DNA of 64,000 bases from Perna viridis (taxonomy: Eukaryota): positions 49,513,626 to 49,577,625 of the forward strand of contig CM074516.1 in NCBI GenBank assembly GCA_037379345.1, given 5' to 3'. The notes below the pieces were generated by a model. It ran no database searches. It was not told where the DNA came from and saw nothing but the letters and a program-made list of their open reading frames with translations. Positions within the stretch are counted from its first letter, which is position 1. Every line of letters starts with the position of its first letter. The position numbers were made by a program, and so were the translations under genes. Shown here in pieces: positions 32,401-56,400 of the stretch.

Positions 32401-35400
32401 AGTTTGACACAGTGATAAATTTACATTAATTTAGAGTAAATTAGGTGAAAGTGCCTTGTCTGTCTATTCCTGCTGGTAAATTACTGGTGAAGTATTTTTG
32501 TCAATATAATGTGATGTTGTTGACATCAAGTGACATGTCTCAAGAGGTGTTGAACTTTTTGATGAGTCAGGATGATAGCAGTTTGACAAATCAGAGTTAT
32601 CTTTCTTTGTTTAAATTTGTTCATCTGTTTATGTCTTTTTCTTTTCAGTTGCAAACCTTCAAAATGATGACAGGGTACTTATATCTGGTGTAACTGATAA
32701 CCGGTTAAACTCACTCCTCTCAAACTCAATTGCAAAGAATAGTTTAGAAGATGATCAGGTCACGCAGCTGAAATTGGTAGTTGATAGCTTAACAACTGAG
32801 GTATTGTTCTTATCCCAAGTATTCAGAAAATTAATGATGGCAGTTAATTATATGTTTATCAATATGTGTATTGAGTTTTCAGAGTTAATCTTATCTTTTA
32901 ATAAAAAGAAAGGACAAAAGTGAATCATAAGACCTTTGTAGTCAAGCCCTTTTCAAAGACTAGTTAATGTCCAACAATACTCATATTACTAATTTATGAA
33001 GCCCTTTTGTATACTCTGTATGTATGTAATAATTAATTAGCATTATTTATTGTCAAGTGACCCACAAGCGTCTTAGGATAAATTAAGTTAATAATATTTT
33101 CCCCATTTTTGTAAACCATTTTTTTATCAGTAATCTGTATTTTTTTCCATATCTGTTATCCCACCCAGACATTATGGTGGGGGAGGTCACTCCTACAAAA
33201 CCAATAAAATATATTAAGAATCTCCTACATGTAGATCTAAGATATGAGGAAAGTATTTAGTTAAAGTGATTATTTTCTATAAAAATAAAAATACTAAAAA
33301 AATAACTTTTACGTAAACAAAATTTGCTTTTATGTCAAGACAGTGTCAATGGAGCAGATATTTCCTCTCATACATGACAAGCTATTTGAAAATATTCACC
33401 AAAACAATTTAGAGTGGTTGTGATGTCATCAGATTTTTAAAAGAGTTTTGAATTTTGAGTATTGAATGATGTCATGCACCAAGTGTGCTAGTCTCTTGCT
33501 TAACAATATATTCAGCATGATATTGTCAGTATCAAAATGGGAAGTAACTATTGTTTTATGTGTGTCTTTCTTTACAGAACACAGGTTTAAAAACTAAAAT
33601 CAGGCAGTATGAAGAAACTTGTGTGTGTTACCCAGAATGTACTATTGGAAACAAAATATATGATGAAGGTCAGACTTGGAGTGAAGGTCGTTGTGTAGTG
33701 TGTACATGTCAGGTATGTAGTGATGTAATACCTATTGGTCATTGTACTCTCATAGTTAATATCATCATACCTGTATATTATCATAGAAACAAACATTTTA
33801 TAGAAACTAGTTATTGATTTAAGAATTGGCTATGATAATAATTTTGTCTATTGAAAAATAGCATAAATTTTCAATGTGCATATTCGTGCAATAAACAATA
33901 TGCACATGGAAAATTTATGTTATTTTTCAATAGACAAAATGTTTATCATGGCCAATTCTTTTAAATTAATTTTAAAACAGATTTTTATCTTTAAACATGA
34001 GAAAAGTAGCTCTTAATTTAACTGAATAGGGGTGTGTCAATATATTTTTATCCACTGAGGTATAACAAAATTATATTTATCCAATCAGATTACAGTATTT
34101 ATCTCAAATTAATTTATTACTAAGTGTAATTTAAGCAAACATCCAATAAAAGCTTTTTCTGAAATTGAAAATTTTGAATTTGATTCAATGGACAAAGAAG
34201 AAAAAGACAATTTTGACTAAAGCACTAAAGAAAAGCCATCCAAGTGCATTTTATTATTATGATTATGTTCAGTGTATTAGTATGCATCATTTTTTTAATT
34301 AGTTGTGTAAAAGAGTCTGTTATTATTTTTTCAGCGAGGAAGAGCAGAATGTAGAACTAGATCTGATTCACCTAGCTGTAAATGTAAGTTACGTCTGATT
34401 CACTTAGCTGTGAATGTAAGTTATATTTGATTCACCTAGCTGTGAATGTAAGTTATATCTGATTCACTTAGCTATGAATGTAAGTTATTTCTGATTAACC
34501 TAGCTGTAAATGTAATTTATTTGTGAACTATTCTTAAACTTAAAGTTGTATTTATTTTCATGATACTAGAAAAAACATAAATTGTAAACATTGCATTTGA
34601 CAACAAACTTCTCCTTTAAACCTAAAAGTTATTTATCCTCACAGCAATAATAACATATTAGACTTCTACATATCTGTTCTAAAAAAAGGAGCATAGCTTT
34701 AAAGATTGCTGTCAAGAACTTTAGTTTTAAGAGTACACTATGATATGATATTAGCAGAAATGTTTATAATACTCATGAATGTTGAAATCTCAATATTTTT
34801 AAATACTGTAATATTTTATTCTTTAGCCCCTTGCAGTTCTAACCCCTGTAAAAACCGAGGATACTGCCAAGAGAATGGTTACAATAATTATAAATGTATT
34901 TGTATCACACCTTGGGATGGACCTAACTGTGAGAAGAGGATTAACCCATGTGTTTTACCACCAGACCCTGGAACCTGTAATAAAACTGTCATTAGATATT
35001 ACTATGATAGATTTGAGGAGAAATGTCTTCCTTTTAATTTTACTGGTAGGTAAATGTTGCAGGTACTTACTGAAGTAAAATTATTGTTCAATTTGAGGAA
35101 GAGGTACCAAACAGATATTTTCAGATGTGTTACAGCATCTAAAAAAATACTTCTCATAAAGGAATGATTGAAAATCTTATTTTGTGTTACTTTCCTGTAT
35201 TTGTATTACCCTAATTCATAGTATTGTGGTTGTACTGCAACTTCATTACCAATCACAGTACTGTGGTGCTACCCCCCTACAATTTATAGTAGAATTATTT
35301 AGACATACTTTTGTATACTCTGACCATTCTCTTTGTAATACCCTCCCAAATGAAATAAGAAGTGCTAAAGTAAAAAGTCTTTTTAGGCATAGATTAAAAA

Positions 35401-38400
35401 TCTTCCTGATGGAACATGTACAACAGGCTGAATAATTCAGCTGTACATGTTCTATAATGTTAAGTGAAAACTTAGTTTGCATGTACTTATGTACCTATAT
35501 TATATAATCATTTTACTGCATTGTAATTTACCTCTGTGTTTTTGTTCATTTTGTGTGAGGGTCTCAGGGAAAATTAATTGTAGACTAAATGTGTAATTAT
35601 TATTATGGTTATACTGCCTATTCTCAGTATTGTGATTATATTGCATTGCCCTTGCCAAAGTCATAGTATTGTGGTTGTACTGCATTCACTTTGTCAAAGT
35701 CATAGTATTGTGGTTGTACTGCATTCACTTTGCCAAAGTCATAGTATTGTGGTTGTACTGCATTCACTTTGCCAAAGTCATAGTATTGTGGTTGTACTGC
35801 ATTCACCATGCCAAATTCATAGTATTGTGGTCATACTGCATTCACCTTGCCAAATTCATAGTATTGTGGTTGTACTGCATTCCGCTTACCAAATTCATAG
35901 TTTTGTGGTTGTACTGCATTCACCTTGCCAAATTCATAGTATTGTGGTTGTACTGCATTCCATTCTTACCTTTATAAGTTATAGGTGGTATCAGTGAATA
36001 TGTGAACATTAATGTTGATATATTGAAAAAAGTGGTAATCTATTAAAATATTTTTTTTTTGCAGGATGTGGAGGAAATGCCAACAATTTTGAGAGCCATT
36101 CAGCCTGTTTGGACATAGCATTGAAAGGAGCCTGTTGTTTTAGAAGGTTCAGAATATCTACCACTGGTCCTCAGCAGGAAGAGAGAAGATGTCAGGTAGG
36201 TTAGGTTACAGATACTACCACTGGTCCTTAGCAGGAAGAGAGAAGATGTCAGGTCGGTTAGGTTACAGATCCTGCCACTGATCCTCAGCAGGAAGAGAGA
36301 AGATGTCAGGTAGGTTAGGTTACAGACACTACCACTGGTCCTCAGCAGGAAGAGAGAAGATGTCAGGTAGGTAAGGTTACATATCCTTCCACTGGTCTCC
36401 GCAGGAAGAGAGAAGATGTCAGGTAGGTTAGGTTACAGACACTTCCACTGGCCCTCAGCAGGAAGAAAGAAGATGCCAGGTAGGTTAGGTTACAGATCCT
36501 ACCACTGGTCATCAGCAGGAAGAGAGAAGATGTCAGGTAGGTCAGGTTACAATTCCTACCACTGGTCCTCAGCAGGAAGAGAGAAGATGTCGGGTAGGTT
36601 AGGTTACAGATCCTACCACTGGTCTCCGCAGGAAGAGAGATGTTGGGTAGGTTAGGTTACAGATCCTACCACTGGTTATCAGAAGGAAGAGAGAAGATGT
36701 TGGGTATGTTAGGTTACAGATCCTACCACTGGTCCTCAGCAGGAAGAGAGAAGATGTCGGGTAGGTTAGGTTACAGATCCTACCACTGGTCTCCGCAGGA
36801 AGAGAGAAGATGTTGGGTAGGTTAGGTTACAGATCCTACCACTGGTTATCAGAAGGAAGAGAGAAGATGTCAGGTAGGTTAGGTTACAGATCCTACCACT
36901 GGTCTCCACAGGAAGAGAGATGTCAGGTAGGTTAGGTTACAGACACTACCACTTGTCCTCAGCAGAAAGAGAGAAGATGTCAGGTAGGTAAGGTTACATA
37001 TCCTTCCACTGGTCTCCGCAGGAAGAGAGAAGATGTTGGGTAAGTTAGGTTACAGACACTTCCACTGGCCCTCAGCGGGAAGAGAGAAGATGTCAGGTAG
37101 GTCAGGTTACAATTCCTACCACTGGTCCTCAGCAGGAAGAGAGAAGATGTCGGGTAGGTTAGGTTACAGATCCTACCACTGGTCTCCGCAGGAAGAGAGA
37201 TGTTGGGTAGGTTAGGTTACAGATCCTACCACTGGTTATCAGAAGGAAGAGAGAAGATGTTGGGTATGTTAGGTTACAGATCCTACCACTGGTCCTCAGC
37301 AGGAAGAGAGAAGATGTCGGGTAGGTTAGGTTACAGATCCTACCACTGGTCTCCGCAGGAAGAGAGAAGATGTTGGGTAGGTTAGGTTACAGATCCTACC
37401 ACTGGTTATCAGAAGGAAGAGAGAAGATGTCAGGTAGGTTAGGTTACAGATCCTACCACTGGTCTCCACAGGAAGAGAGATGTCAGGTAGGTTAGGTTAC
37501 AGACACTACCACTTGTCCTCAGCAGAAAGAGAGAAGATGTCAGGTAGGTAAGGTTACATATCCTTCCACTGGTCTCCGCAGGAAGAGAGATGTTGGGTAA
37601 GTTAGGTTACAGACACTTCCACTGGCCCTCAGCGGGAAGAGAGAAGATGTCAAGTAGGTTAGGTTACAGATCCTACCACTGGTCCTCAGCATAAAGAGAG
37701 AAGATGACGGGTAGGTTAGGTTATAGATCCTACCACTGGTCCTCAGCAGAAAGAGAGAAGATGACGGGTAGGTTAGGTTATAGATGGTACCATTGGCCCT
37801 CAGCAGAAACAGAGAATATGTTGGGTGGGTTAGGTTACAGATCATTTCACGAGCCCTCAGCAGGAAGAGAGATTATGTCAGGTAGCTTTAGTTATATGAT
37901 TTTTCAAGGTGAATTATTGAGAATGCTTATAAAAATTAAACACTGTTCTGGGAATAGTACAGGTATAACTCTTCCTTGGAGATTGTTGTTCTCATATTGA
38001 CTGAATTTGATACTTTTGTGCAGAAAAAGTATCAATATCACGCTTACAGTGGCCTCCATAGAGGAGGTTAAAAATATCACCATTGCAACTATATTTTCGC
38101 TTACTGTAAAGGATTATGGTAATTGTGATTGAGAACCCAACCAGACCTGGAAAACATTTGCTAACTTTGATTATAAAATACCAATCGTATCATAGCTTTT
38201 TCCAAGATAGAGATGACCAAAACAGTCAACAGTATGATGGTGCCCCAATGTTTATGTATGATGTTATCTTACTAACCATAATTCATGGAAATTCAGACAA
38301 TAGGACAACAGTTTTAACTGTACAGTAGTTAGAATAATTAATGAAGGTTTGACAAAGGGAACATTGGTATGAATTACTCCAGGAGCATTTCAGGTATCAC

Positions 38401-41400
38401 TTGTCTCACATTACTTCTCATAGTTCATTTGTCAAGACAATGGCTACACCATTTATGTATGTTTCATAAGTACTGTGTGACACAGTTGGAAAATGTAAAA
38501 TTAGGGAAACTTGAATGTGAACAGAACAAAACACATGGAAAGTTGTATGCTATTTACATGTAATATGAATAATTTTAATTTGATGCTTACCCTACCGGTG
38601 CACCTGGTCCATGCTCCCAGTTTTTAGTGGAGTCCAAGTTGCTCATTTGCTTTTGTTACTTTGTATGTATGATTTTAGTTACTCTGTGTTCTTTGTTGTG
38701 TGTGTCTGTTTTCCATGTCTGATCTTTGTCCCTGGATTACATTCTTTTGATTACCGCTATAACATTGGTGCCCTTGATTACTCTTTTAACAGGTATACAG
38801 CTTGGGAGAATGTAAGGGCATACACAGGAAAACTCAGGTTGGCTATACAAGTGAGGTTATTGGATTCTTCCCTGGACAGATCTGTGCTGAAGCTGGATGT
38901 ACAGAGCCACATAATGGCTGTAACTATGGCGACAGAGTATATCAGCCAGGGGAAGTAAGGCAAGCATGTCAACAGAGATGTACATGTGAAGCAGACATAC
39001 AGTGGAGTTGTAGGTAAGATACATGATTTATTGTTGTATTCGCACGGGTGTGACAAAATGCATGCAGTATTCACACTTAAAAGAATTAGTGATTTGTATG
39101 GAAAATGTTCCAGCTGAAACATATTATAGAAAATTCATTAGGTATGCATTTTCTTAAATCGTTTAGAAACTAATTAAATTGTCATGTGAACATGACATCT
39201 TGTACCATTTGCTTTAAAATAGATATAAAAATATGTTGTTTTCATTAAACCTGTTTTTGGAAGGTTTTGAAAATGTTCCATAACTTCTATGTGAACCCAA
39301 GCATTTTTTAAATATTTCAAAATTTACAGTGATTAGGTTAATTAAGGTATAATTTTTTGGCTTTGCCTTGCACAGTGTACAGGTTTTTTGATTTTTCAGA
39401 CTTATGCAATTGCAATATTTGCAATTTTAAACAAAATTGACAACTGTTATCATAAGAGATCTATTTGTTACCTGTAATTTTAATTATTTTCAATATAACT
39501 ATTATTTTACACTGTAGCTGTGAAAGGCCAACAATCAGAAGGGAGATAAGAGACATGACACATGATGAACTGATTTCTCTACAAATAGCCATCCAGAAAG
39601 TTAAATCTACAGGGCCAGGCAATGTCTGGGATAAAATGAGAGACATGTACATACACCATGGAATGTTCTCACACGGTAGTGCTTTCTTCCTGCCGTGGCA
39701 TAGATACTACCTGAGGCAGCTGGAACAGAGATTACAGGAAGTGGACTGTACAGTTTTTCTCCCTTACTTTGATTTCACTACGGATGTTGGAAGTTTTACT
39801 GATGCAATTATCTGGCAGCCAAACATGTTTGGTGGTGATGGACAGGGAAGAGAAGGTTGTGTTTATGACCATCCATTTGGTCAAAGCTGGCAGCCATGTA
39901 TACGTAGAAGATTAAATCCAAACATCCAGCTGCCTACCATGATAGAACTTGCCCTTGCTCTAAGCAGTGATGACTATACTGAGATGAGCTTATCATTAGA
40001 ATCGTATGTTAGTTATCTCCATCAATATATTGGAGGAGACATGGCAACTAGTACTGCTGCTTATGACCCAGTTTTCATAGCCATACATGCCTTCATTGAT
40101 AAACTGTACTGGGACTGGCAGCAACGTGGAAACAATAAATTTAAATTTCCTCCAACTTTTGGAAATATACCCATGATTCCATTCAACATTCCACCTAGCA
40201 GTGTCCTTGATTCCGAGAATGAAGTTTGTGCGACCTATGCCTTGACCTCTAGGGGTCATCCCTGTAACAGGACAGTACATTCTGTAGGTGGTGATGGTGA
40301 TAGAGGTGATATTCCAGCAGAAGTAGGGAGCAGATATAAAACGTTGTATGGTGCTGATGGATTGGATAGACATGGGTTCACACAGAATGGTTATCACAGA
40401 TCAGGTAAGAAATGGTTTAGTCGTTATAAACTGGGAAATAATGAAATCTTGGGAGAGGTTCGGTTTTACTGGTAATGTGATAAAATCAGTACATGTTTCA
40501 AAAAAAAAAAATTATAGCTCAAAAATTGAAAAGCAGTTTTAATCAATATATCAACAATTAGTTATTTACACTGCTTTATGTTTGGTATATTAACACTTGT
40601 AAATGAAGATACTTTTCTAAGTAAATTTCTATTTAACAGCATAATTTTAAAGTGAAGCAAATAATTATGGTATTTTAATCTTCTGTTTTACACAGGTTAT
40701 AATAGAGATGGTTACAACCTTCAAGGGTTTAATAAAGAAGGATTTGATCGCTATGGTTATGATGTCAAGGGCTATTCTACATATGGATACAACAGAAATG
40801 GATATGATGTCAGTGGTAATCCTGACACATCTGGTCGCTATAGTGATGCTGGGTATAATCAATTCTGTCTAAACAGACTAGGTAATTAGATACACCCTAA
40901 AATTCCTTTAAATTCAGACACCATTGTTAATGACAAAATAATAATTTTAATTAAAGTATCTGATATATCAATAAGGAAGACATTTATAGGAGCATACTGA
41001 GTTCAAAACCTGCAGTAAAGTGTGCTGTTAATAGTTGAAAACCTGTTAGGCAATTCAGATTTATTTTCCTGGTTAAAAGCTTTTTCATGACAACCAGTTT
41101 CCCCTAACAAAACCCAATATAATTGATAAGGGTGCATTTCCACAATTTTCTGAGTCTTAGACCCTTTAATTTGTATCTCTTAGTATGACAGTGCAATGTA
41201 GCCTAATGAACAAGAAGTCATTTTCAGTGAGAATCACATTTCTAACTATTTCAGGGTTTACAAGGGAAGGATATGACCAGTATGGATTTACAGCCAGAGG
41301 TTATGATGTGTACAACTGTAACTATTTGTTTAATGGTCCATTTGCTCCAATACAATCGTATAGAATCTGGGAGATATTGTCTTCACAGGATAAAAGATTC

Positions 41401-44400
41401 CTATCCTCTCTTCCCAGACTGTGTCCTCAACTTAACACAGTTACACCTGCCTGGGCAAGTCATTTCTGGATGGGACAGATTAAAGATGTCACAAGTAAGT
41501 CCTTTTTGCTCTACCATACTGTGTCCTCAACTTAACACAGTCACGCCTACTTTGGCAAGTCACTTTTGGATGGGGGAAAGAGTAATCAAGGGAACCAAGG
41601 TTATAGCAGTAATCAAAAGAATGTAATCCAGGGACAAAGACAAGACATGGAAAATATCATTTGTATGAAATCAATCCTGTTTTTCTAGTGATACAGAATT
41701 ATAGACAAATTTATTTATTTCATCAAAGACATAATTATTAACATAGTGTTATTTTTATACAATGAAAGGCCTTAGATGATATTCTGAAAATTGATAAAGT
41801 AATATTGAAAGGTGATTCTTTACAGAGATATATCTTTGTGTATGGTCATTAAAGACCTGTTATTTTTCAGATATGGTACCAGTAAAGACTCCGGATTCAC
41901 CTTTGATCCTGCCATCCTCTAGGTTCTGTTTTGATACCTCATCATTCTTGTCTATTTGTACCTGTGATAGGTTGGCCAGGTGTACTGTTAACCCATGTCA
42001 ATCAGCTGTGTGTCAGGCCTACCCAGAGGCTGTATGTAGGATAGACCTTTGTAGAGAATGTAGGGCTGTGTGGTATCGAGATGGAAAAAAGGTCAACTGT
42101 AGGGATGATAGGGGTAGGTACTGCTTGGTGTCAGGTCTGCCTAGAGATTGTTTGTAGGATAGACCTGTGTAGGGAGTGTAGGACTGTGTGGTATCTAGAT
42201 GGAAGAAAGGTCAACTGTAGGGATGATAGGGGTAGATACTGCTTGGTGTCAAGTCCGTCTAGAGATTGTATGTAGGATAGACCTGTGTAGGGTGCGTAGG
42301 GCTGTGTGGTATCTAGGTGGGAGGAAGGTCAACTGTAGGGGTGATAGAGGTAGGTTTTTTTTGGTGTCAGGCCTACCTAGAGATTGTATGTAGGGTAAAG
42401 TCTGTAGGGAGGGTAGGGCCTTGTGGTTTCATACTTGGAGGAAGGCCAACTGTAGGGAAGATATATATAGGCCTTCTTAATGTGAGGTCTGCCCAGGGCT
42501 GTGTGTAGGGTAGACCTTTGTAGGGAATGTAAAGTCGTTTGGTATCTAGATGAGAGGAGGGTCACCTATGGATTTTTATAGGAAAAATTTGGTTCCACCA
42601 CTTAAATTTGTCAAATTGATTCAAACTAAATGTGAACAGGTCGAGACTAAATATCCTATAAACTTAAGATCAGAAGCTATGTCGAAGGTAAAGTTCCTAG
42701 TTACTAAAATTTTAAAGTTTTGTGTAGGGCCACATTGCTCACAGCTTTTGTTTGAACTGGCAATATAATATCTTGCTGTAAAATGATATTAATGTATATC
42801 AAGTTATTTTTTTCCCATACAGATTTTTGTCAACCCAGTCCTTGTTTAAATGGTGGCATCTGTACAGCCTCTATATGGACCAACGAGCCTCACCTGGTTA
42901 CATGTAGATGTCCACCTGGGTATGATGGACCTAGATGTCAACACAAAGCTGTGGAAGTCTGTACCCTATCAGTCAGTCATGGTAAATACATTGTAACATA
43001 GTCTCTCTATTTTCTTCAATGATTGAGGAACTTTGCTCTCCTAGTGTCAAAATTAAATTGTGCTTCAGGTAAGGTTAATATTCAGTTATGCCACAAGTAC
43101 AATTGGTATATTATTGTGCTACTGGTATGATTGGTATATTAGTGTGCTCTAGGTACAGTTGGTATTTTATTGTGCTACAGGTATAGTTTATATTTCATTG
43201 TGTTACAGGCATGATCAGTTTATTTTTGTGCTTCAGGTTTGTTTGATATTTAATTGTGCTCAGTTGCAGTTGGTACTTCATTGTTTTTAGGTACCTGCAC
43301 CCAGAGGTTATCAAGATGGTATTACAACTACAGAACTCAGCGATGTGAAGAATTCATCTTTACAGGATGTAATGGTAACTCTAACAACTTTCCTGATTAT
43401 GACTCTTGTCAGTCACGTTGTATGGAAGGAGCCTGTTGTTATAGATATCCTATATTCAGAAACAGGATTGCTGGCTATGATGAAAAGGGCTATGACAGGT
43501 ACTATAATTGATTTAATAAGTATTACCTTAACTTCTATCATCTTGTTTCTGGGTATCTGGGTAATATCTCCACTGATCATTGGCAATATCTCTACTATTT
43601 CTGGGTTATATTCCCACTGTTTCTGGGTTATACCTCCAGTGTTTCTGGGTTATATCTCCAGTGTTTCTGGATAATATATCCACTGTTTTTGGCTAGTATC
43701 TCCACTGTTTCTGGGAAAAATATCCACTGTTTCTGGGTGATATAACCACTGTTTCTGGATAATGTATCCACTGTTTCTGGGTTATATCTCCACTGTTTCT
43801 GGTTAATATCTCCACTGCTTCTTGGTAGTATATCCACTGTTTAAGGTTTAAATCTCTTCTGTTTCTGGGTAGTATATCTACTGTTTCTGGGTTATATCTC
43901 CACTGTTTAAGGTAGTATCCCCACTCTTTCTGGGTTATATCTCCACTCTTTCTGATTTATATCTCCACTGTTTTAGGTAGTTTCTTCACTCTTTCTGGGT
44001 TATATCTCCACTGTTTTAGGTAGTGTCACCACTCTTTCTGAGTTACATCTCCATGGCTTCTAGGTTATATCTCCACTATTTCTGGTTTATTTCTCCAGTG
44101 TTTCTGTGTAATATATCCACTGTTTCTTTGTAATATCTCCAATATTTGTGGGTAATATCTCCCCTATTTCTGGGTAATGTCTCCTCTGTTTTTTTGGTAA
44201 TATCTCCTGTTTTTTTTGTGTTTATTTTTGGTAAAATCTCCAACATTTCTGGTTTATATCTCCACTCTTTCTTGTTAATATCTCCACTGTTTGCTTATTT
44301 GTAGTCTCAGTATTGGATTTATTTAGAGTTTCACATCTCTTCTTTACATTTAGGAAGATATATATTTATTATTACCAAGACAAGCGTCAGGTAGGGGGTC

Positions 44401-47400
44401 CAAATCATGAATGGCTTTAAATCATTTTGTCAGAAATGACATTTAATTAGGAAGTGATTGTTAGATCTTTAAAGGTAGGCACTGAGAGCTGTTCTATGAA
44501 TTCTAGATCTTTAAAGGTAGGCACCGAGAGTTGTTCTATGAAGTCTTGCATTTTCAAGTTGGTTGACATCACCAGTAACAGCACAACAAAACTATTATTT
44601 GAGTACAAATAGTTGTTCCTCAAAGCCTTAAATCAAATTATATGTGTATTTAATGTAAGCTTTGTATTAATGATATGAACATTTGTTTATGATATAAATG
44701 TAAAGGTAAGTTAAAGCCATTATATGTTTATATTTTCACTGTAGATATGGATTTACATTGGGTGGTGTCAACAAAAGGAAAGAGAATAGAACTTACAATA
44801 ACAGTCTGTGGACAGGGAACCAGATTTATAACCGAAATGGTTTTGACAGACAAGGTACTCTGTATAATTGTATTCTACCTATATAATATTACTTGCTAAT
44901 TTTTTTTCTCTTCAACTAATTTTTATATTTATTGATTTAATTTAAATTTCCATTCAAGGGATAATTAATAATCATTGGTAATGTTAAATTGAATCCACAG
45001 TTTGATTCTTATATAATTCTATATTCATAATGAGTATTTTTATAAACCTTGAAACTCATGAGTGGAAATATTGAAATTTTTGTCAGGAATTTAGACCTCA
45101 GAACTAGAGGCTTTTAAATCATAATATTTTTTATATGACCCCCAAACAAATTGCTGTATATTGGTATGGCGCTGGCTCTGTGGTCCGTGTTGTTGTCAAT
45201 TATAGACACTTGGTTTTCTTGCGATTACTTGACTATTAGTTGGTTGATCTTTGAAAAAAATTTAACAGGGTTTCAAACCACAAAAGGAAGATTGGTATAG
45301 ATTTTGGGTGCTATAGCCCCAACCACTTAGAAATAAGGGGCATGAGCGGCCTTAAACAAGCATTTCATAGAGCTGAACTATTAAACTCCAGTAAAAGTAT
45401 AGGAATGTCTAGGCTAAAAACCACTAATTCCACTTCCCATAGGCTTCTATGCTAATTTCACAATATTCAATGGCTTCTCTGGACTTTACCTTAACTTTAA
45501 CCTGCAGATGACTATATATCAGCATGACTCTACATATGTCAGCTCACAATCCTCAGAATGGCATGTGGGGTTAGCAGACTTGCAGTGCAGTACTGGTCAC
45601 CGGAAGTGAAGGGTCTATAAATAGCATGGGAAATCCCAGTGTTTTCACAAGATAGGGGTACATTTAAAAATCATTATGGAGATTAGGCTTCACATCACAA
45701 GAAGCAAAATGCACCTATAAAATGTACAGAAATGTTTTTCCTTTCAGAAACTGTTTAAATTTTTTAAATAAGATGAGAACTTTTTTCACAGCACTATGAG
45801 GAACAGGGGTAATTTCTGCGTAGGACTATTTTTGCGTACGTTCCAAATGCTCATTGGTTGAATTGGTGGTCTGTAACCTAAATCTATGGTATTGTTTCAC
45901 AATTATCTATACCACAATGATCAGAGTTGAATTGATTTTTGGATAAAAACTAGAATGTTTTAGAAACTAAGGGCCAAAAAGGGGGTAAGAAAAATACATT
46001 TTCCAGATGTTTAGACAATATCCTGTTTATTTTTGGTCCGAATTTTTTTTATTGAATTCATTATGAAAGTCCTTGCCTGGACCTCTGAAATCAGATTTCA
46101 GATATCTCCTACAGTTTTCGAGTTATATAGGATCAAAGGAGCCACATCCTGACATATTAAATTTTTAATTTTTGGTCTGATTTCTAAATTATTGCATTCC
46201 GTATGAAATTCCCTGCCTGCATTTGTCAATCAGACTAGGTATCTCTTACTGTTTTCAAGTTCAGGGGTCACACCCCAGTAAATTGACTTTTAAATTTTTT
46301 GTCTGATTTTGAAAAGTTTTAATTTAATTTTAAATTTTGTGCTATGTTGTGTCCAAACCAGTTGTTATGTCCATGATGAATTGTAAGTCCCTATGTTTAA
46401 GTGTGTCAAAAACTAATATTGTGTCCACATTTGCCCAAACTTTCAGGCAAAGCGAAAACTGCTGTTGTATCATGCTGCACTCCTTGAAACTATTAATGTT
46501 TTTCAGTTGCACCATATGTTTTTACTGTAATATTCTGAATGAAAATGAAAAATGTTTCAATGCAGTTTGATCTCCTGAGAGAGTTTAACTTCCTTTCGAG
46601 GGATGTGACGATCCCAGTGGGAGGTTCAATTATATGTTGAAAATCTATTGATGTCTACTTAAATTTCAGGTACCTACATTTAGGTTCAGTTTAAACAATT
46701 TTTTTCTGATATCTGATTTTCAGGTTTTGATAGAGATGGCTATAATAGACATGGACAGGACAGACAGGGATATGACAGAGCTGGGTTTGATACTAGTGGA
46801 TATGATGTGTTAGGCTATAATAGACATGGAGAATATGATGGCAATGTAGAATATGGCAATGATGGTTATAATGTAGAAGGCTTCAACAGGTAATATTTAC
46901 TAATAAAATAATAAGCTCCATTTATCTAACCAACATAACAATGGCCAATCAATTGTTTAAACTTATACATAATAAGTATGAGAATTTTTTAAAAAGTACA
47001 ATGTATTTAACTATACATGTAAGAGAGTAGGCATGCATGTATTAATGTTGACTTTTTACTTTCGTGTCTTTTTGTATATATATGACTAAGTCCCTGTTCA
47101 AGTTATTTTATTTTGTTGTTTTAACAGTTGTGTTATTTGTTTTCAGGGCTGGATATAATTGCCATGGTAACAATAGGAGGGGATATGATATATTTGGACT
47201 ATCACATGGTTACAATCATAAGTGTAGATCTTTGACCTTAAGTCAGTGTCAGTCAATAGAATTAAAGAAGAGCCATCTAGTTGTGACCTTCAGCCAAGGT
47301 CGAAAATGTGAAGATGTTGATTGTGGTGAGTCATGTGGATGTAGCTATGGAAACAGTACATATAAAATTGGGTCAAAAGTCAATTTAGGATGTCAGGAAT

Positions 47401-50400
47401 GTGTTTGTGATAGTAAAGGAGTATTGAGATGTTCATGCCAGACTTTAAGCAAAAGGAAGGAAATAAGAGAACTATCTGACTTTGACCTTAGAAAGTATCA
47501 AAATAATATCAGAAGACTGGCTATGGAAACAGGATGCCCTTCACGATGGTTTAACATTGCTAGAATGTATGCAGATCATAAACCACAAGCTGTTGGAAGT
47601 GATGCCTTTTTACCTTGGCATAGGTACTTCCTGCGATATGTAGAGAGAGAAATACAGCGGTATGATTGTGATATCACAATACCATATTATGACTGGACAA
47701 TAGATGCTGGTAGTCCTGATAAATCTATTGTTTGGTCTAACAAATATTTTGGAGGGAATGGTGATGATACAACTGGATGTATACCATCTCATCCGTTCAA
47801 GGGACATAACTCTGCCTATTGGATCCCTTGTCTAAGGAGACAGTTTAGTAAGAATATAAATCTTCCTGATGCTGTTAATTTACAATTAGCTCTGAATGAC
47901 CCTTCATACACAAACTTCAGATTACACATGGAAGTTGCATCTCAGTTGTTCCATTCTTGGGTTGGAGGTCACATGGGGTCAGATTTAGCACCATTTGATC
48001 CTGTTTTCTTGTCTCATATAGCTTTCATAGACAAAATATGGGACAGCTGGCAGAAGAAGCATGCTGATGGATATTTATCCTACCCCAGCCAATTGAGATA
48101 TTCACCAATGTCCCCATTCCATGCCTCACCAGATGATGTTCTGGAATCAGAGGAACAGATGTGTGTTCAGTATGTTCCACTGACAGAAGGTTTACTGTGC
48201 AATGTTAGAATTCCTGTCTATGGTTATGATCAATATGGCTATGATCGCCATGGATACGATCGTGAGGGTTATGACAAAGATGGCTATGACATCAGAGGAT
48301 ATGATAGGTCAGGAAACATGGACACCCGGGGTATTTTTAGTGTGGATGGTTATGATAAGGAAGGTTATAACAGACAAGGGTTCGATAGAAATGGCTTTGA
48401 TAGGTTTGGATTTTACATTGACATGTACAATTTGGATGGTTTTGATGCTAGTGGTTTAGACAAGTGGGGCTTTGATAGATATGGTTTTGATATGAATGGT
48501 ATGACACCTTTTGGATTCAACAGGAATGGTACTTGGACAATTGATGGTTACAAACGTTTGTTTGACTCTGCAGGCTTCAATCGCTATGGTTACAATGTGT
48601 ATGGATTTAATCGTGAGGGATATGATATGTTTGGCTTTAATTCAAAAGGTTTTGACTTCAAAGGTTGTAACAACTATTACATAGGTCCTATGTATGTAAT
48701 CATCAAACGATGGGCTGAAGTGGAACTTGATAAAAAAGATGATGCCACCATACGAGTAATAGTTCGTATTTGTCCAGCTGTTACCACCTATCCATCATGG
48801 AGGTATACTACTAACTGGTTACGTAGAGGAGACCAGGTTGTCCTGATAGAGAAGTTACAAGAAGAACAAGCAAGGAGACATCAGGTCGACTTGAACTATA
48901 TGCCAAGAGAATCGAGTGTAACTGATGAGAGACTCTGGTTACCTATAGAACCAGATAAAAGGTATATGTAACTAGTTAATGGTATTGTTTCCCTTTGTAT
49001 TTACATTGAATTTATTCAATTAAGTTTATTTTTTCCAGAAACAATAATCTAATAAGTCATTTACTACATAAAATTATATATATAATGCCACACAAACAGT
49101 ATTCCATGTTAATGAAGGAAATATCTACTTTCAGGTTATGTTTTATCACCTACTACTTTTCTAAGTGTCCATTAGGTAGATACCCAGTGACATGTGCTGA
49201 GAACATATGTCAAAGAAGACAATGTCCAGGTAAGTGGACACTTAATAGTCAATGTAACAGTCTGTTAGCCTTCCTATGGAAAGTCATTACGGTATGTGGC
49301 AAATATTAGTCTGTTAGTCTTCAATGTGTTAATCACTACACTTTTTTGGTGAATGTTACAGTCTGGAAGTCTTTCTAAAGCATATCATTACACTATGTGG
49401 CAAATGTTACAATCTCTAAGTCTTCCTAAAGCATGTCATTACACTGAGTGGTGAATGTCACAGTCTCTAAGTTTTCCTAAATCAAGTCATTACACTAAGT
49501 GGTGAATGTTTCAATCTCTAAGTCTTCCTAAAGCATGTCGTAACATTAAGTGACAAATGTTACAGTCTCAAAGTCTTCCTAAAGCATATCATTACACTGA
49601 GTGGACAATGTTACAGTCTCTAAGTCTTTCTCAAGCATGTCATTACACTGAGTGGTGAATATTACAGTCATGTTATCATATGTGGCACTTTTGATTGTTT
49701 ATGGTAAAGACAAATATTTAGGCAAGAATTTTTTTGGTGAAAATGAAATTTAATGGTAAGGAATTTATATTTAATAAATCCAGATATCCTAGAAATAAAT
49801 ACAGTGAATGATGTAATAAATTTTATTTTATGCTACAGGAATTCCTGATGCTGTATGTAGAATAAATACATGTGGAAGTTGTTCATTGGAGTGGTACAAT
49901 GTACAGACTGGTAATACTGTACAGTGCAGTGGTGAGTATATATAAAAAGATAATTATTTAAAAAGTGTGAATAATCAAAATGTGATCATGAGTGTTAAAG
50001 AATGGCTAGATTTAATGTGTTTGCAGAACATGTTCCACAGACAAGTTAAATCTTCCAGCATTCTTGGCATGAGTAATTATAATTTGGTTACTCACAATAA
50101 CCAGTTGATTGTCCCAACTCACAACAACCAGTTGATTGTCCCAACTCACCATAACCAGTTGATTGTTCCAACTCACTATGTACAGTTGATTGTTCCAACT
50201 CACCATGACGAGTTGATTGTACCAACTCACCATAACCAGTTGATTGTTCCAACTCACTATGTACAGTTGATTGTTCCAACTCACCATGACCAGTTGATTG
50301 TCCCAATTCACCATGACCAGTTGATTGTACCAACTCAACATGACCAGTTGATTGTCCCAATTCACCATGACCAGTTGATTGTACCAACTCAACATGACCA

Positions 50401-53400
50401 GTTGATTGTCCCAATTCACCATGACCAGTTGATTGTACCAACTCACCATAACCAGTTGATTGTCCCAACTCACAACAACCAGTTGATTGTTCCAACTCAC
50501 CATGACCAGTTGATTGTCCCAACTCACCATGACCAGTTGATTGTCCCAACTCACCATAACAAGTTGATTGTACCAATTATTATATAGATTCTCTCCATAA
50601 TTTGTTGCTGTATTTCACAATTAAAAATGAAAAATTTTGTGATCAATGTATTGATATTATTATTGTGATTCTTTTGGAAGGAGAAAGTTCAAGAGTGAAA
50701 TTACCAAATGTATTCCACTGTGTATTATTGAAAGTTTTTACACCAGGGACATTCGATAAATCATTGCTGCTTTTATAATAAATTGTTTTACAGCTAGTAT
50801 GTACACTGTTTAATTGAACTTTCATAAACAAACAGTATCTTGAATTGAGAATTTTGACAGAAATTAAATTAAAGGGTAAGATATAATAAGATTTATCCTG
50901 AACCAATATCATTTTGAAAAAAAAAAATTAAAAAGGGTACTGTGAATTATCAAGATATTTTTAGAAATGGAACATTTGATAAATCACTGATCTATAAAAA
51001 AATATTTGAATATAAAAATTGATCTCCATTAAGAACTTAATTTACCTGGATGATTTTATCTTATTTAAGCTGATATGAATGGTCACTTCAGTCACAAAAA
51101 AGAAATGTTGGGTCACTATAATGTAAATATTTATTTTAAAATAGGGGTCATTGAGAATTTGTTTATTTACAGGCTGTGTAGATGATCAAGGTGTAGATCA
51201 TATAGAAGGATCTTCATGGAGAACATCTCCTTGTCAAACATGTCAATGTCTGGTAACTATCAAATTTATTGTGTGATTTTACATTTATGAATTCGATTTT
51301 AATTTTGTGAAGTTAAATATAAAAATTGTGGTGAATTAGGATGAAAATAGAACCAGGAATGTTTTCCACAGTAATGAAATCTTCAAGGGTTTTATATTGA
51401 TGGGATAATTAATTTGAAAGAGTGAATAACCAAAGTATTATCACGAGTGTTGAAGAGTGCCTAAATTTAATGAGAGGGTGTGGAACTTGATCCGCGCACT
51501 AATTAAATCCTCAAGTGTTCTTGACAGAAGTGGTCATATTTTGGTTATTCATGATAACCAATTAATTATCCTATTTATTTTATAGATTTTTTTCATAATA
51601 CGGTGTGTATATTGATATTTTCAACATGGATTGGCAGATTGATATCAATGTTGTGACGTTTTGGCGGGAGAAAGTCAGAGAGTGATATTACCAAATTTAT
51701 TTCAGTGTAAATTATCAAAATTTATTTGATAAAACACTGCTATCTATATAATAATACTGCATACTCCATATCTGTCTGTTTCTTACTCAATCTTTTCATT
51801 CCTTCACAATTCTGTAATTGATTTCTCAGGATAAAATGATTCCATATTTTAGTTACCATTTCAGCAGTTTGATTTGTACTGTGTCTCCCTTTTTAGTTTT
51901 CCTGCAAACTCTGTTTAACTTGAAACCAAGATTTTCTTTCCAGTTTTTAATGTATTAAGTGTCAGTCTGTAAGAATCAGGCATAGGGTGAACCATTCATT
52001 GAACTACAATATTTTATAATTCATAATCATGTATTCACTATTACAGAACAGTATGATTACATGTGCAAAGAAAGTATGTGACTCTCCCAGATGTCGATAC
52101 CCTATACAGAGTCCTGGACAATGTTGTCCTACTTGTGAAGGTAAGTATGTGACCCTCCCTGGTGTTGGTAGTACCCTATACAGAGTTCTGGAGAATACTG
52201 TTCTACTTGTGAAGGTAAGTGTGTGACTCTCCCAGATGTAGGTACCCTATACAGAGTCCTGGACAATATTGTCCTACTTGTGAAGGTAAGTGTGTGACCC
52301 TCCCTGGTGTTGGTGGTACCCCAAAGGAGTTCTGGACAATATTGTCCTACTTGTGAAGGTAAGTGTGTGACCCTCCCTGGTGTAGGTGGTACCCCAAAGG
52401 AGTTCTGGACAATGTTGTCCTACTTGTGAAGGTAAGGTTTACTGGTCTTGGATCATTATCAAACTCTTAACCTTCTCATTGGAATACTTGAAAGCAAGTT
52501 ATTATTAAGAAGTTCATATGCTACAATAACACTGATTGTAAAAACTGTTCATGAAATTTTGCATGTAGACTAATTTCTGTAGACTTTTTTTTTAGCAAAA
52601 TGGGTATTGTCCTATTTTCACCTGGTAGGTAAATAGCAACCTAAATACTTCTAATTTACCTCTGTTAAAAGATTTACATTTACTCAAAGTTTTATGCAAG
52701 AAATCTGTACTCTTGATTCATAGATTTAAAAAAAAACATTTTTATTCCTAGGAGGTTGTTTTTATGACGGAAGAATTTACATAACAGGAAGTACATTTGT
52801 ACAAAGGAACGATCGTTGTCAGAAGTGTATGTGTGATCAAGGTGAAGTAACATGCCAGAGAAAGCCATGTCCTGATATTGGCCGATGTAGAACTCCAATA
52901 ACTTTAGAGGGGAAATGTTGTCCTACATGTATGGATTGTGGTAACCGTGCCAATGGAACAAGATGGAGAGATAGTCCATGCCAGCACTGTAGCTGTGTTG
53001 TATGTTTAATTTGGTTTACCATACTTACCTTTGAATAAAAAAGCCACATTAAAATTAATAGTGAAGCGATAAAATGTTTACATGTACAGGTAAAATGATT
53101 CTAATGATAAAATCATATGAGAAATAACAATAGATAAAACTGTTAATACATGTTGAATGTTTTTTACCATATTGAACATTTCTCTTTTGTTTACAGAATG
53201 GACAAGAACAGTGCCATACCATCAGATGTGGTTATCCAGATTGTTCTAATCCTCATATACCACCAGGGGAATGTTGTCCTGTCTGTGAATGTAAGTATCA
53301 TACCACCAGGGGAATGACCATCTGGTGGATGTTGCCCTATAAATGAATGTAATTTACATTGATCATAAAAGATTCTCTAATTTGTGAAAAAGTAATCAAG

Positions 53401-56400
53401 GAAACCAAGATTCTAGCAGAAATCAAAAGAGTGTAATCCACGGACAACAATCAGATGGGGAAAACAGACACACATAACAAAGAACATAAAATAACCAAAA
53501 TAATTTGTACAAAAGAACAAAAGCAAATTAGCAACTTGGACTTCACTGAAAACTGGGAACTGAGTTGCTCATAAAAAGTCAGTTCAGGAGTAGACAAAAG
53601 AGGAAAGGAAAACTATGACACTTTGAATAAATTGGTGCTCATGGTGCAGATGGATACACTGTACTGATCCAAGAATTCATGATAATGACTGTAAAAATTA
53701 TGTACTGATGACTTCAATCTTCTAGCAACATAACCCTGTTTCAGAAGCCTAATTGTGAGAAGTCTAGCAAGGTACAAAAAGTCTGCAATAAGGCAAGCTC
53801 TGGCATAATGTATGAGTTATGATATGAAAACTCGATATGCAGTTGCTGAAGAGGTATTGCCACAGATAATAGGAAAGTTGACATTATGGAATGAAAAGTA
53901 ATTGTGATTGTGGTATAGTTTTGTCAATAGTTTTCCTTTACCATTAATCTCTAATTGTAGGTCAAGAAATGAGGCTGACATCACAGTGCCTCTAGTATCC
54001 TTTATTTCAAGTTCTTTGGGGTAGATCCAATGTATAAAATCCTTTGGATCAGGTCAGCTGTAAAGCCAGCCTCATAAGAGTGAAGGAATAGGTCAGCGAG
54101 TAGAGGAGCACAATTTGTTCCCATTGGAATGTCAATCTTTGGTTCAAATTATGTGTCTACCACACTGGGCAAATATTTTGTCGATCAAATATGTTGTGAA
54201 TCGTAGTTAAATAGCACCAGATTAACAGTTGGATGTAGTTAAATAGCACCAGATTAACGGTTGCATGTTAAAACTATCTGAATTCAGGATGGTCATTTAA
54301 AAATAGGTTCACATCTTTATAGCACTTCTTAATTTTGAATTTGCCATGTCTACACATTTGGTTATTCTTATGAGATTATTGTTCTTGTTTCAGCATGTTT
54401 ATTTGAAGGAAAGGTGATTAAAGATGGAGAGACATATAACCCAGATAAATGTACTACATGTACCTGTAACCATGGAAACATGGACTGTGCCAAGAAAGAT
54501 TGTCCTTCCGTTTCCTGTAGTAATCCAGTCTTTCAGCCAGGAGGATGTTGTCCTGTTTGTGATAGTGGTATTAACTCCAAATTTATTTACACACTGAAGG
54601 GAAACATTTCTAGATTGACATAGTTTAAAAAAACTAAAAAGATACAAGGACAAAAAACAAAAGTGCAAATTACTGTTCTTGACCTCAGATAATGAACAGA
54701 TAATATTTTAATGTCACATCAACTTGAAACTGGGTAAGAATGAATTCAAGATACATCTGTGCACAAAGAATGTAAAAAAACTACTTTATTTTTGTGATGT
54801 CCATGTAGAATATAAATAAATAATATTGTTTTGATAGTCTTGGCAACCTTAATGCTTTCAGAAAGCAACAATTCCATGTTTTTCAGCTTGTGAATATGAC
54901 ATGAAGACATATGTACATGGAGCAACATTTGTTGCCAGTTATGATCCTTGTTTGAACTGTTCCTGTCGGAATGCTATTGTCAGGTGTATTCCCATCCATT
55001 GTTCACTATCTGCTTACCCATGCAGAAATCCAGTTAGAAAGGGAGGCAACTGTTGTGACTTTGAGTGTCCAGGTTTGTGAATGTAGTTAACTTATATAAC
55101 TATCAGTAAATTTATTAGTGTTCAAGGCAAATATAGCTTCTAATTAGTGATAATAAAAAGTCCTTTAACTTGCAAGCTGAGCAATGTATACTGGGAACAA
55201 TATTCCTGAATCTTCATGCAATAACCCTTTATTATTAACCAACTACTCAAAATACGTCAAAAACTGTCCAATTGATATGAATTCAAACCAGGCATCTATG
55301 CGGGGCCAATATGAAAAAAGAGGGCTAATATGGATCAAATATGGATCAAATGCCAATACGGCATCATAACTTCCGGTCGTTTGACACCGCCATTTTTTGT
55401 TAGAATTGGATTTAATGAACTTTGATCACCAGAACTAAAAGCTGCAGAAACACAAAAAAAATCTTCCATTTTATACAAAGTGGATATTTCAGACTGAATA
55501 ATGCAAATAAACCTTTATATTTTTTGGTAAAACATGAAAACAACTGTTCTACAAATCATCTAGTTTAGTTGGTTAATAAAATTATCAATAAATATGTAAT
55601 TTCATATTGGCCCTGTTATAGGTTTCGGTCAATCATATTGGCCTCGACAGCTGTATTGGCCCTCGGGGATGCCTCAGGACCAATACAACTGCCTTGACCA
55701 ATAAGACAGACCTCAAACCTATAACAGGGCATATATGAAATTACTTATTTATTAACATATATTATTAACCAACTTACTACAATATGTATAGAAATGCCCA
55801 TCCTTTATGAACTGAAAATTTCGACAACTGGTCATTACGAACTGGAAATTCCTACAGCCGGTCATCATGAAATCACAGCCATGCATTATGAATTTCAAAA
55901 CAGGGCATCAATACAGGGCCATTAGGAACTAAATCAAAATGGCGTTCATACAAAATAAGTGACAACTTTAATTAAGAGTGACCTAATAATTCAATTAATT
56001 ATTATGAAATAATTTTGAATTGAACAGAAGTCCAAGACAGTAATATAGTATTAATGTATGGCCTTTTCCATATTGGCCCTGTAACATGCCATTGATATTA
56101 ATAATGGCCTCGGATGGCTGTAATGGCCCTCAGCATTGCCGCGGTCCATTACAGTCATCCTTGGCCATTATTAATACCTCGGGCATGTTACAGGGCCAGT
56201 ATGGAAAAGGCTGTACATTAATACTATATTACTGTCTTGGTCTTCTGTTCAATTCAAAATTATTTCAGCATGCCAGCAATCATTATTTCTGTTCCTAAAT
56301 TTGATAGTGAAAAACACAATGTTTATTAATACATCAGACATATTTCAGTAGATTAGTTGCTACATTTTTCATTGAAAGATTGATGAAATATTTTGATTTG

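Follow-up and report, generated by a model that had tools for sequence, protein, structure and literature searches.

A conserved tyrosinase-fold domain lacking the canonical dicopper site in a kielin/chordin-like protein of Perna viridis

What does a tyrosinase domain do once part of its copper site is gone? The question is raised by one exon in a 64,000-nucleotide stretch of Perna viridis DNA (assembly GCA_037379345.1, contig CM074516.1, positions 49,513,626 to 49,577,625 of the forward strand; hereafter the window, with coordinates counted from its first letter), which encodes a tyrosinase-fold domain, D1, that has kept four of the canonical six copper-ligand histidines. We find D1 to be real, old and conserved, and most likely a copper-less type-3 derivative carried as a module of the ancestral kielin/chordin-like protein (KCP).

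Results

The locus encodes a kielin/chordin-like protein with two tyrosinase-fold domains

The window gene encodes a roughly 4,000-residue KCP protein in which D1 is the first of two tyrosinase-fold domains. Relatives are 2,576-4,925 aa long, many of them named kielin/chordin-like in databases, and the full-length ones align colinearly with the window in 24-26 pieces from 20669 to 63847 (tblastn). The parts of the gene are:

20669..21148, + strand: N-terminal exon (39% in tblastn to Argopecten residues 46-201)
34827..39013, + strand: three upstream exons with EGF, Kunitz and a Cys-rich/VWC-like module (Pfam EGF and Kunitz; contig joints)
39518..40404, + strand: exon with tyrosinase-fold D1 and the first G[YF]D repeats (GT-AG joints in 4/4 runs, open frame)
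39519..40265, + strand: D1 domain, Cys1-Cys249 (Pfam PF00264, model, structure matches)
40696..46889, + strand: seven linker exons with G[YF]D repeats, Cys module, EGF, Kunitz and repeats (tblastn, joints, Pfam)
47147..48961, + strand: exon with the second tyrosinase-fold domain, D2 (about 47436-48209; Pfam E 8.8e-27)
49133..63847, + strand: VWC-array exons (tblastn chains); the gene continues past the window end

Joined, the twelve exons from 34827 to 48961 give 1,527 codons with no stop. Contigs from four of four runs (4 studies) covered the D1 exon with 0 differing letters, and in three runs (X3, X5, X18) D1 and D2 lay on one spliced contig. Splicing was deduced from contigs in which the GT-AG introns flanking the D1 exon are skipped, depth being left unused; three of the runs were guessed to be RNA by the tool and the fourth was untyped, none being recorded as RNA.

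From the N terminus, the protein runs through an N-terminal domain, a VWC-like module, EGF, Kunitz, a Cys module, D1 and Gly-Tyr-Asp repeats, and after those through a Cys module, EGF, Kunitz, repeats, D2, repeats and the VWC array. The N-terminal exon corresponds to a stretch that reads as LamG in the orthologue from a crinoid (Laminin_G_3 match in P0016); on the exon itself Pfam gave no LamG match, and the third of the upstream exons (Cys-rich/VWC-like) had no Pfam match either. Hydrophobic N-termini were seen by eye in two orthologues. Pfam VWC was found on seven of seven tested window exons, five of them above the curated cut-off and all within 52751-63847; with 14-32 Pfam stretches in orthologues, the long VWC array expected of a KCP is present. 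No VWD was found in the window exon chain, whose gene extends beyond the window end, and one was found in models from Argopecten, Littorina, Argonauta, Lingula, amphioxus, crinoid, Limulus, shark and Hypomesus. A VWC array with terminal VWD characterizes 8 of 10 orthologue models longer than 2,500 aa, those of Sinanodonta and Styela having no VWD match. Orthology to mammalian Kcp is putative, resting on database names, architecture and the placement within the D2 clade of proteins from shark and teleosts that carry the name KCP.

The D2 exon also holds about 20 G[YF][DN]xxG repeats. Such pentapeptide-like repeats occur in the window at 40340-40881, 41255-41320, 43480-46889 and 48220-48660, and on the tested window exons they matched no Pfam family. 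They follow the domain at 5-21 per 250 aa in 33 of the 34 D1/D2 rows with enough flank, Owenia having 0. At the DNA level, two introns hold degenerate tandem repeats of an exon end, one set at 42113-42560, right after exon 41871-42113, and the other at about 56590-57000, right after the exon at about 56406-56590; high-copy intronic repeats, marked by very high contig depth, are found at about 38580-38780, 41576-41630 and 45410-46220.

D1 retains the type-3 fold without a complete set of copper ligands

D1 matched PF00264 with E 5.4e-28 over residues 41-203. Its predicted structure (pLDDT 90.3, pTM 0.90) superposed on Bacillus tyrosinase 3nm8 with Z 30.6 and an rmsd of 1.7 A over 235 residues, on 4j3p with Z 26.7, on human TYRP1 with Z 24.5, and on Streptomyces tyrosinase with TM 0.85 (Foldseek TMq 0.85); an ESM Atlas search with D1 returned generic tyrosinase clusters only. 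Both the PF00264 domain and the four-helix-bundle fold seen in type-3 copper proteins are thus found by Pfam and model, the four-helix fold being predicted intact and the frame staying open through the exon, as the original prediction had supposed. The copper site itself, numbered from Cys1 at 39519, reads as follows:

39648..39650, + strand: Tyr44 (TAC), HA1 slot; Tyr in 36/36 D1 rows by alignment column
39654..39659, + strand: His46-His47 (39654 and 39657); His47 is HA1+3, the helix-break position, and His in 35/36 D1 rows
39666..39668, + strand: Phe50, HA1+6; His in 29/36 D1 rows, lost in window D1
39672..39674, + strand: His52, HA2 slot, poorly conserved; His in 9/36 D1 rows
39699..39701, + strand: His61, HA3; His in 32/36 D1 rows
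40008..40010, + strand: Val164 (GTT), HB1 slot; His in 0/36 D1, 0/23 D2 and 8/8 choanoflagellate-type rows
40020..40022, + strand: His168, HB2; His in 33/36 D1 rows
40083..40088, + strand: Ile189 (seventh-His slot) and His190 (HB3, 40086); His in 0/36 and 28/36 D1 rows, respectively

The Tyr in the HA1 slot, the Val in the HB1 slot, the four remaining His at HA2, HA3, HB2 and HB3, and the His-His pair two to three residues after HA1 had all been predicted, and each was read from the window at exactly the predicted coordinate. HA2, which the prediction counted as kept, is His in just 9 of the 36 D1 domains, and the 'seventh His' before HB3, on which it was silent, is likewise absent. With HA1 being Tyr44, D1 lacks the three-His CuA motif H1(n)-H2(8)-H3; with HB1 being Val164, it lacks the three-His CuB motif H1(3)-H2(n)-H3. 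Phe57 and Phe186 (four before HA3 and HB3) and Asp194 (four after HB3) are present, the Asp in 36/36 D1 rows. In the model, helix 153-171 is unbroken, with Val164 and His168 at i and i+4.

Tyr44, not His47, occupies the HA1 slot

In 82 of 110 outgroup rows, HA1 and HA2 lie 17 and 9 residues ahead of HA3, a spacing that puts Tyr44 on HA1 gap-free. Six of those 82 have a His at HA1+3 besides intact HA1 and HA2, the commonest residues there being Asn (27) and Tyr (16). The D1 model has helices at 36-46 and 48-51 with a break at 47, and His52 follows directly. The same pattern appears in a six-His control, P0089 (pLDDT 92.8), which likewise carries a His at +3: helix 43-51 containing HA1 His49, a break at His52, helix 53-56 and HA2 His57. 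In both models the HA1 slot stands two residues before the helix end and the +3 His at the break; the HA1 residue is therefore Tyr44, and not His47. The idea of a shifted HA1 at His47 came from one MAFFT alignment with a fungal enzyme that opened a 3-residue gap, and is ruled out by spacing and helix pattern. A motif test (an aromatic seven before HA1) discriminated poorly, agreeing with the Tyr44 register in 33/36 rows and with the His47 register in 24/36. Match starts against AoCO4, which are not a residue-level alignment, give an offset of 58; this would place Tyr44 on AoCO4 residue 102, which we take to be its HA1. The hint that the His-His pair might replace HA1 was therefore not borne out: His46 is outside the set of D1 columns conserved at 85%, and His47 sits at the helix-break position.

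Ligand loss is shared across Bilateria

We counted residues in 36 D1 rows (the window and 35 others), 23 D2 rows, 8 choanoflagellate-type rows and 102 other rows. Duplicates (P0173, the window's own; P0159, P0160 and P0167, Lingula isoforms and a duplicate; the near-duplicate P0161) were dropped, as were P0007 (a frameshifted model), P0008 (without the CuA segment), fragments below 200 aa and other rows below 90 bits. P0167 is a 5,988-aa record whose repeated D1 and D2 domains are identical to those of Lingula, and is probably a mis-joined gene model. D1 was found in molluscs, brachiopod, annelid, hemichordate, crinoid, amphioxus and tunicate, to which D2 adds arthropods, shark and teleosts. 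Mollusc sources were Patella, Elysia, Littorina, Batillaria, Ruditapes, Sinanodonta, Argopecten, Tegillarca, Octopus and Argonauta; the others were Lingula, Owenia, Ptychodera, Anneissia, Branchiostoma, Styela, Limulus, Tachypleus, Macrobrachium, Meganyctiphanes, Hemiscyllium and six teleosts. Both domains occur in molluscs, Lingula, Ptychodera and Styela, D1 alone in amphioxus and crinoid models, and D2 alone in Limulus and shark models; gene models may be incomplete.

The substitutions proved conserved in orthologues, with Tyr at HA1 in 36/36 D1 domains (34 by fixed offset, two rows having a one-residue deletion) and His at HB1 in 0/36; because rows within the D1 and D2 sets are related, these counts are not independent events. 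Where the original prediction saw a local oddity of a tyrosinase, the substitutions are an old, fixed trait of a domain inside a KCP protein. HB1 is His in 0/59 D1 and D2 rows together, being replaced by the non-ligating V, A, I, L, S, G or M. None of the 36 D1 and none of the 23 D2 rows has six His, as compared to 5/8 choanoflagellate-type and 75/102 other rows, counts by fixed offsets that underestimate rows with other loop lengths; the maximum is four of six in D1 and three in D2. The fold residues W60, R62, E69, D183, P184, D194 and W200 are invariant in 59/59 rows, and D1 identity across Bilateria is 42-63%.

Even the better-kept D1 ligands HA3, HB2 and HB3 (32, 33 and 28 of 36) fall short of the 100, 99 and 98 of 102 seen in outgroup rows. 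Their losses are scattered over the tree, HA3 being lost in Elysia, amphioxus and Styela and HB3 in octopods, crinoid and amphioxus; amphioxus D1 has 0/6 His, though it is 51% identical to window D1. A Glu three residues ahead of the HB1 slot occurs in 28/36 D1 rows.

D2 of the window carries Y,V,H / S,H,I in its slots and is 35% identical to D1. Across the 23 D2 rows HA1 is Tyr in 13, Arg in 5, His in 3 and Gln in 2, and His is found at HB1 in 0, at HB2 in 8, at HB3 in 0 and at the seventh-His slot in 20. D2 is more degenerate than D1, yet it has a His after a Gly-Gly motif in 20/23 rows; this His and the seventh His might possibly form a separate binding site.

The domain has sister sequences in choanoflagellates

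In a quick-search tree of 111 domains (midpoint root, SH-aLRT support only), KCP domains formed one clade (99) split into D1 (96) and D2 (98), and window D1 grouped with bivalve rows (95). The sister clade (own support 99, join 82) comprised Salpingoeca and Hartaetosiga sequences and three further proteins, the choanoflagellates being Salpingoeca urceolata, S. rosetta and Hartaetosiga balthica. Choanoflagellate and KCP cassettes also share flanks: Kunitz and repeats upstream (BLASTP E 5e-12), repeat and Cys modules downstream (BLASTP E 3e-27). HB1 is retained throughout the choanoflagellate-type rows; the site is incomplete in 3/8 of them (one a truncated model), which indicates decay there too. 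The 30 proteins traced to source included no carrier of the cassette from cnidarians or sponges.

Several further records deserve mention. P0024, P0028, P0029, P0031, P0035, P0037 and P0040 are choanoflagellate-type giants in which a tyrosinase domain, six-His in most of them, is joined to Kunitz modules and Gly-Tyr-Asp repeats; they are possibly self-cross-linking extracellular enzymes. Shark and teleost KCP models (P0022, P0023, P0027, P0032, P0164-P0166) carry a D2-type tyrosinase-fold domain. P0039, P0043 and P0061, from Macrobrachium, krill and a spider, are PF00264 matches of the KCP-domain type; the available text of PMC11803259 states, contrary to the Macrobrachium and krill matches, that malacostracans lack PF00264 proteins.

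The substitutions are ancient, and the domain likely descends from a probably active enzyme still seen in choanoflagellates. A cassette predating animals, likely with an active site, would have joined a VWC array. HB1 would have been lost before a duplication of the cassette in an early bilaterian gave rise to D1 and D2; an early loss is suggested by HB1 being the sole slot with His in no animal row and by its mostly multi-step replacements. The duplication would have preceded the protostome-deuterostome split, the copies then shedding different ligands.

Discussion

Alternative readings of the D1 site

The original prediction offered a mononuclear or altered-metal site or a pseudoenzyme. The canonical dicopper site is indeed lost, and of these options a pseudoenzyme fits best: D1 is probably a non-catalytic structural or binding module, a pseudo-tyrosinase and not an oxidase. 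This reading follows from the invariant fold combined with ligands lost lineage by lineage, down to the empty amphioxus site. The models that keep just one of the two domains, the inactivity on L-tyrosine of a Streptomyces tyrosinase short of one ligand (H63F, PMC6312201) and the hexamerin and Hcl-1 precedents also count in its favour. With HA1, HB1 and the seventh His all gone, neither copper retains three His, and no conserved ligand in the D1 alignment stands in for HB1. Tyr44 and Val164 may fill the vacated CuA and CuB spaces, and the D1-specific conserved R41, D42, Y44, H47, M49, F86, T88, Y166 and W198 may form packing or partner-binding surfaces, which would make them the place to look for whatever the module binds. 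Any metal still bound would be incidental or structural; growth-factor binding, if retained, would sit in the VWC array as in vertebrate Kcp. Against a pseudoenzyme, the His flanked by Tyr44 and His47 are less conserved than these two residues themselves, and Tyr44, HA3, HB2 and HB3 co-occur in 26/36 D1 rows, which a functional pocket could explain. Nor is ligand loss proof of metal loss. In the available text of PMC6312201, Streptomyces tyrosinase has ligands His38, 54, 63, 190, 194 and 216, and its H63F variant, inactive on L-tyrosine, still formed a dicopper centre under forcing conditions.

That intact quartet is what a selected mononuclear site would use: His168, His190, His61 and the phenolate of Tyr44 would hold a single Zn, Cu or Fe close to the former CuB position, with a role in sensing metal, binding a ligand or a new chemistry. 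Tyr/His metal sites occur in other enzymes. The set is present in the window, every bivalve with an assigned source, Patella, Littorina, Lingula, Owenia and Ptychodera; Tyr44 is invariant, and D1 keeps its His far better than D2 does at HB2 and HB3. We nevertheless consider such a site doubtful: 10/36 D1 rows, in several separate lineages, miss part of the set, buried His may be retained for packing, His-to-Tyr is one base change, and wherever HA1 or HA3 (or, in D1, HB3) is not His, its residue is a one-step neighbour of His, as decay under lost constraint would produce. The fuller scenario, in which a Kunitz-tyrosinase cassette of choanoflagellate age was taken up by the ancestral bilaterian KCP and the dicopper centre in the first copy was turned into a one-metal Tyr/His site, is unlikely. 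A dicopper oxidase with rearranged ligands, with CuA built from His47, His50 or His52, and His61 and CuB from two His plus Tyr or water, seems highly improbable to us, although His47, one of His50 and His52, and His61 co-occur in 28/36 D1 rows, MAFFT aligned His47 with a fungal HA1, the Glu ahead of HB1 is largely kept, and the Tyr-rich repeats after D1 could be substrate. His47 lies at the helix break, where the six-His control has a His besides its HA1; HB1 is unreplaced in an unbroken helix 153-171, the only conserved ligand nearby being Tyr166 at i+2, which by its geometry would point to another helix face; and the seventh His is absent from 36/36 D1 rows. The HA1-HA2 spacing would moreover be 5, where short-spaced types have 7-9 according to the available text of PMC11803259. 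Finally, nothing beyond the ligand loss itself speaks for a sequencing artefact or pseudogene decay in the P. viridis genome, to which we give practically no credence: it is ruled out by the unanimous contigs of all four runs, the stop-free 12-exon frame and the same substitutions in 35 homologous domains.

Comparison with known systems

With type-3 copper proteins (short-spaced type 1 polyphenol oxidases; Streptomyces and Bacillus tyrosinase, Aspergillus AoCO4) D1 shares the fold, the PWHR and DP.F motifs, a Phe four residues ahead of HA3 and of HB3, an Asp four residues past HB3 and short HA1-HA2 spacing; it differs in its HA1 Tyr, HB1 Val and Ile at the seventh His, and in lying inside a roughly 4,000-residue multidomain protein. 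Human TYRP1, a tyrosinase fold with altered metal use, is a possible comparison to D1 and, unlike D1, retains all six His. Zn-bound TRP1 is named in the available text of PMC6312201, and the type-3 motifs are defined in that of PMC3658974. Arthropod hexamerins and Biomphalaria Hcl-1/Hcl-2 likewise keep their fold with copper His replaced, and are copper-less precedents whose oxygen function is thought lost (PMC5201427, available text). Those proteins are hemocyanin-derived, lineage-restricted and free, whereas the KCP domain is of short tyrosinase-type origin and Bilateria-wide. D1 lacks the molluscan hemocyanin thioether Cys two before HA2 (Phe50; His in most orthologues), and the hemocyanin beta-sandwich domain PF14830 had no Pfam match in the window exons or scanned orthologues.

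Window-type proteins share with KCP/Kcp the VWC array and, in most orthologue models, the terminal VWD. In its available text, PMC10315795 describes mammalian Kcp as 18 cysteine-rich repeats plus a VWD and as a BMP enhancer, with tyrosinase unmentioned; unlike Kcp as so described, the present proteins add one or two N-terminal EGF-Kunitz-tyrosinase-repeat cassettes. The choanoflagellate Kunitz-tyrosinase giants have the same cassette on both sides of the domain and form the sister clade of KCP domains; unlike KCP proteins, they gave 0 Pfam VWC/VWD matches in 7 scanned and keep HB1 in 8/8.

The tyrosinase domain's presence is already in databases and was noted in passing; the loss of its site and its history appear undescribed in the literature searched. 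Spiralian sequences above 3,000 aa with tyrosinase and kielin/chordin-like domains are mentioned as outliers in PMC11667028, from whose main text, as available, the word histidine is absent. In its accessible parts, a recent PPO classification (PMC11803259) lists the D2 domains of Lingula in its Table S2; a small number of 'type d' and unclassified PPOs are reported there for chordates and molluscs, and kielin is never named. The argonaut eggcase matrix contains kielin/chordin-like proteins, described as VWC-only in the available text of bioRxiv 10.1101/2021.07.10.451900, and the accessible part of PMC9395347 yielded nothing for kielin. We found no description of the lost ligands or the choanoflagellate link in a literature search that left most subscription papers uncovered; figures S2/S3 of PMC11803259 may show the lost ligands.

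Implications

Were the one-metal Tyr/His site real, a BMP-modulating matrix protein would sense or use a metal or catechol ligand, and the type-3 fold would have a new kind of active site, found from mussels to acorn worms. On the favoured pseudo-tyrosinase reading, a family whose vertebrate members are known as BMP modulators has kept a tyrosinase fold that lacks its copper site, and this retention implies a non-enzymatic job for the fold. KCP tyrosinase-fold domains should be left out of tyrosinase gene-family counts. The choanoflagellate six-His proteins, whose activity is presumed from their six His, provide a natural active control, and the presence of D2 in teleosts and shark makes the module genetically testable in fish. 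The retained fold also points to mammalian Kcp as a reduced version of a larger ancestral protein.
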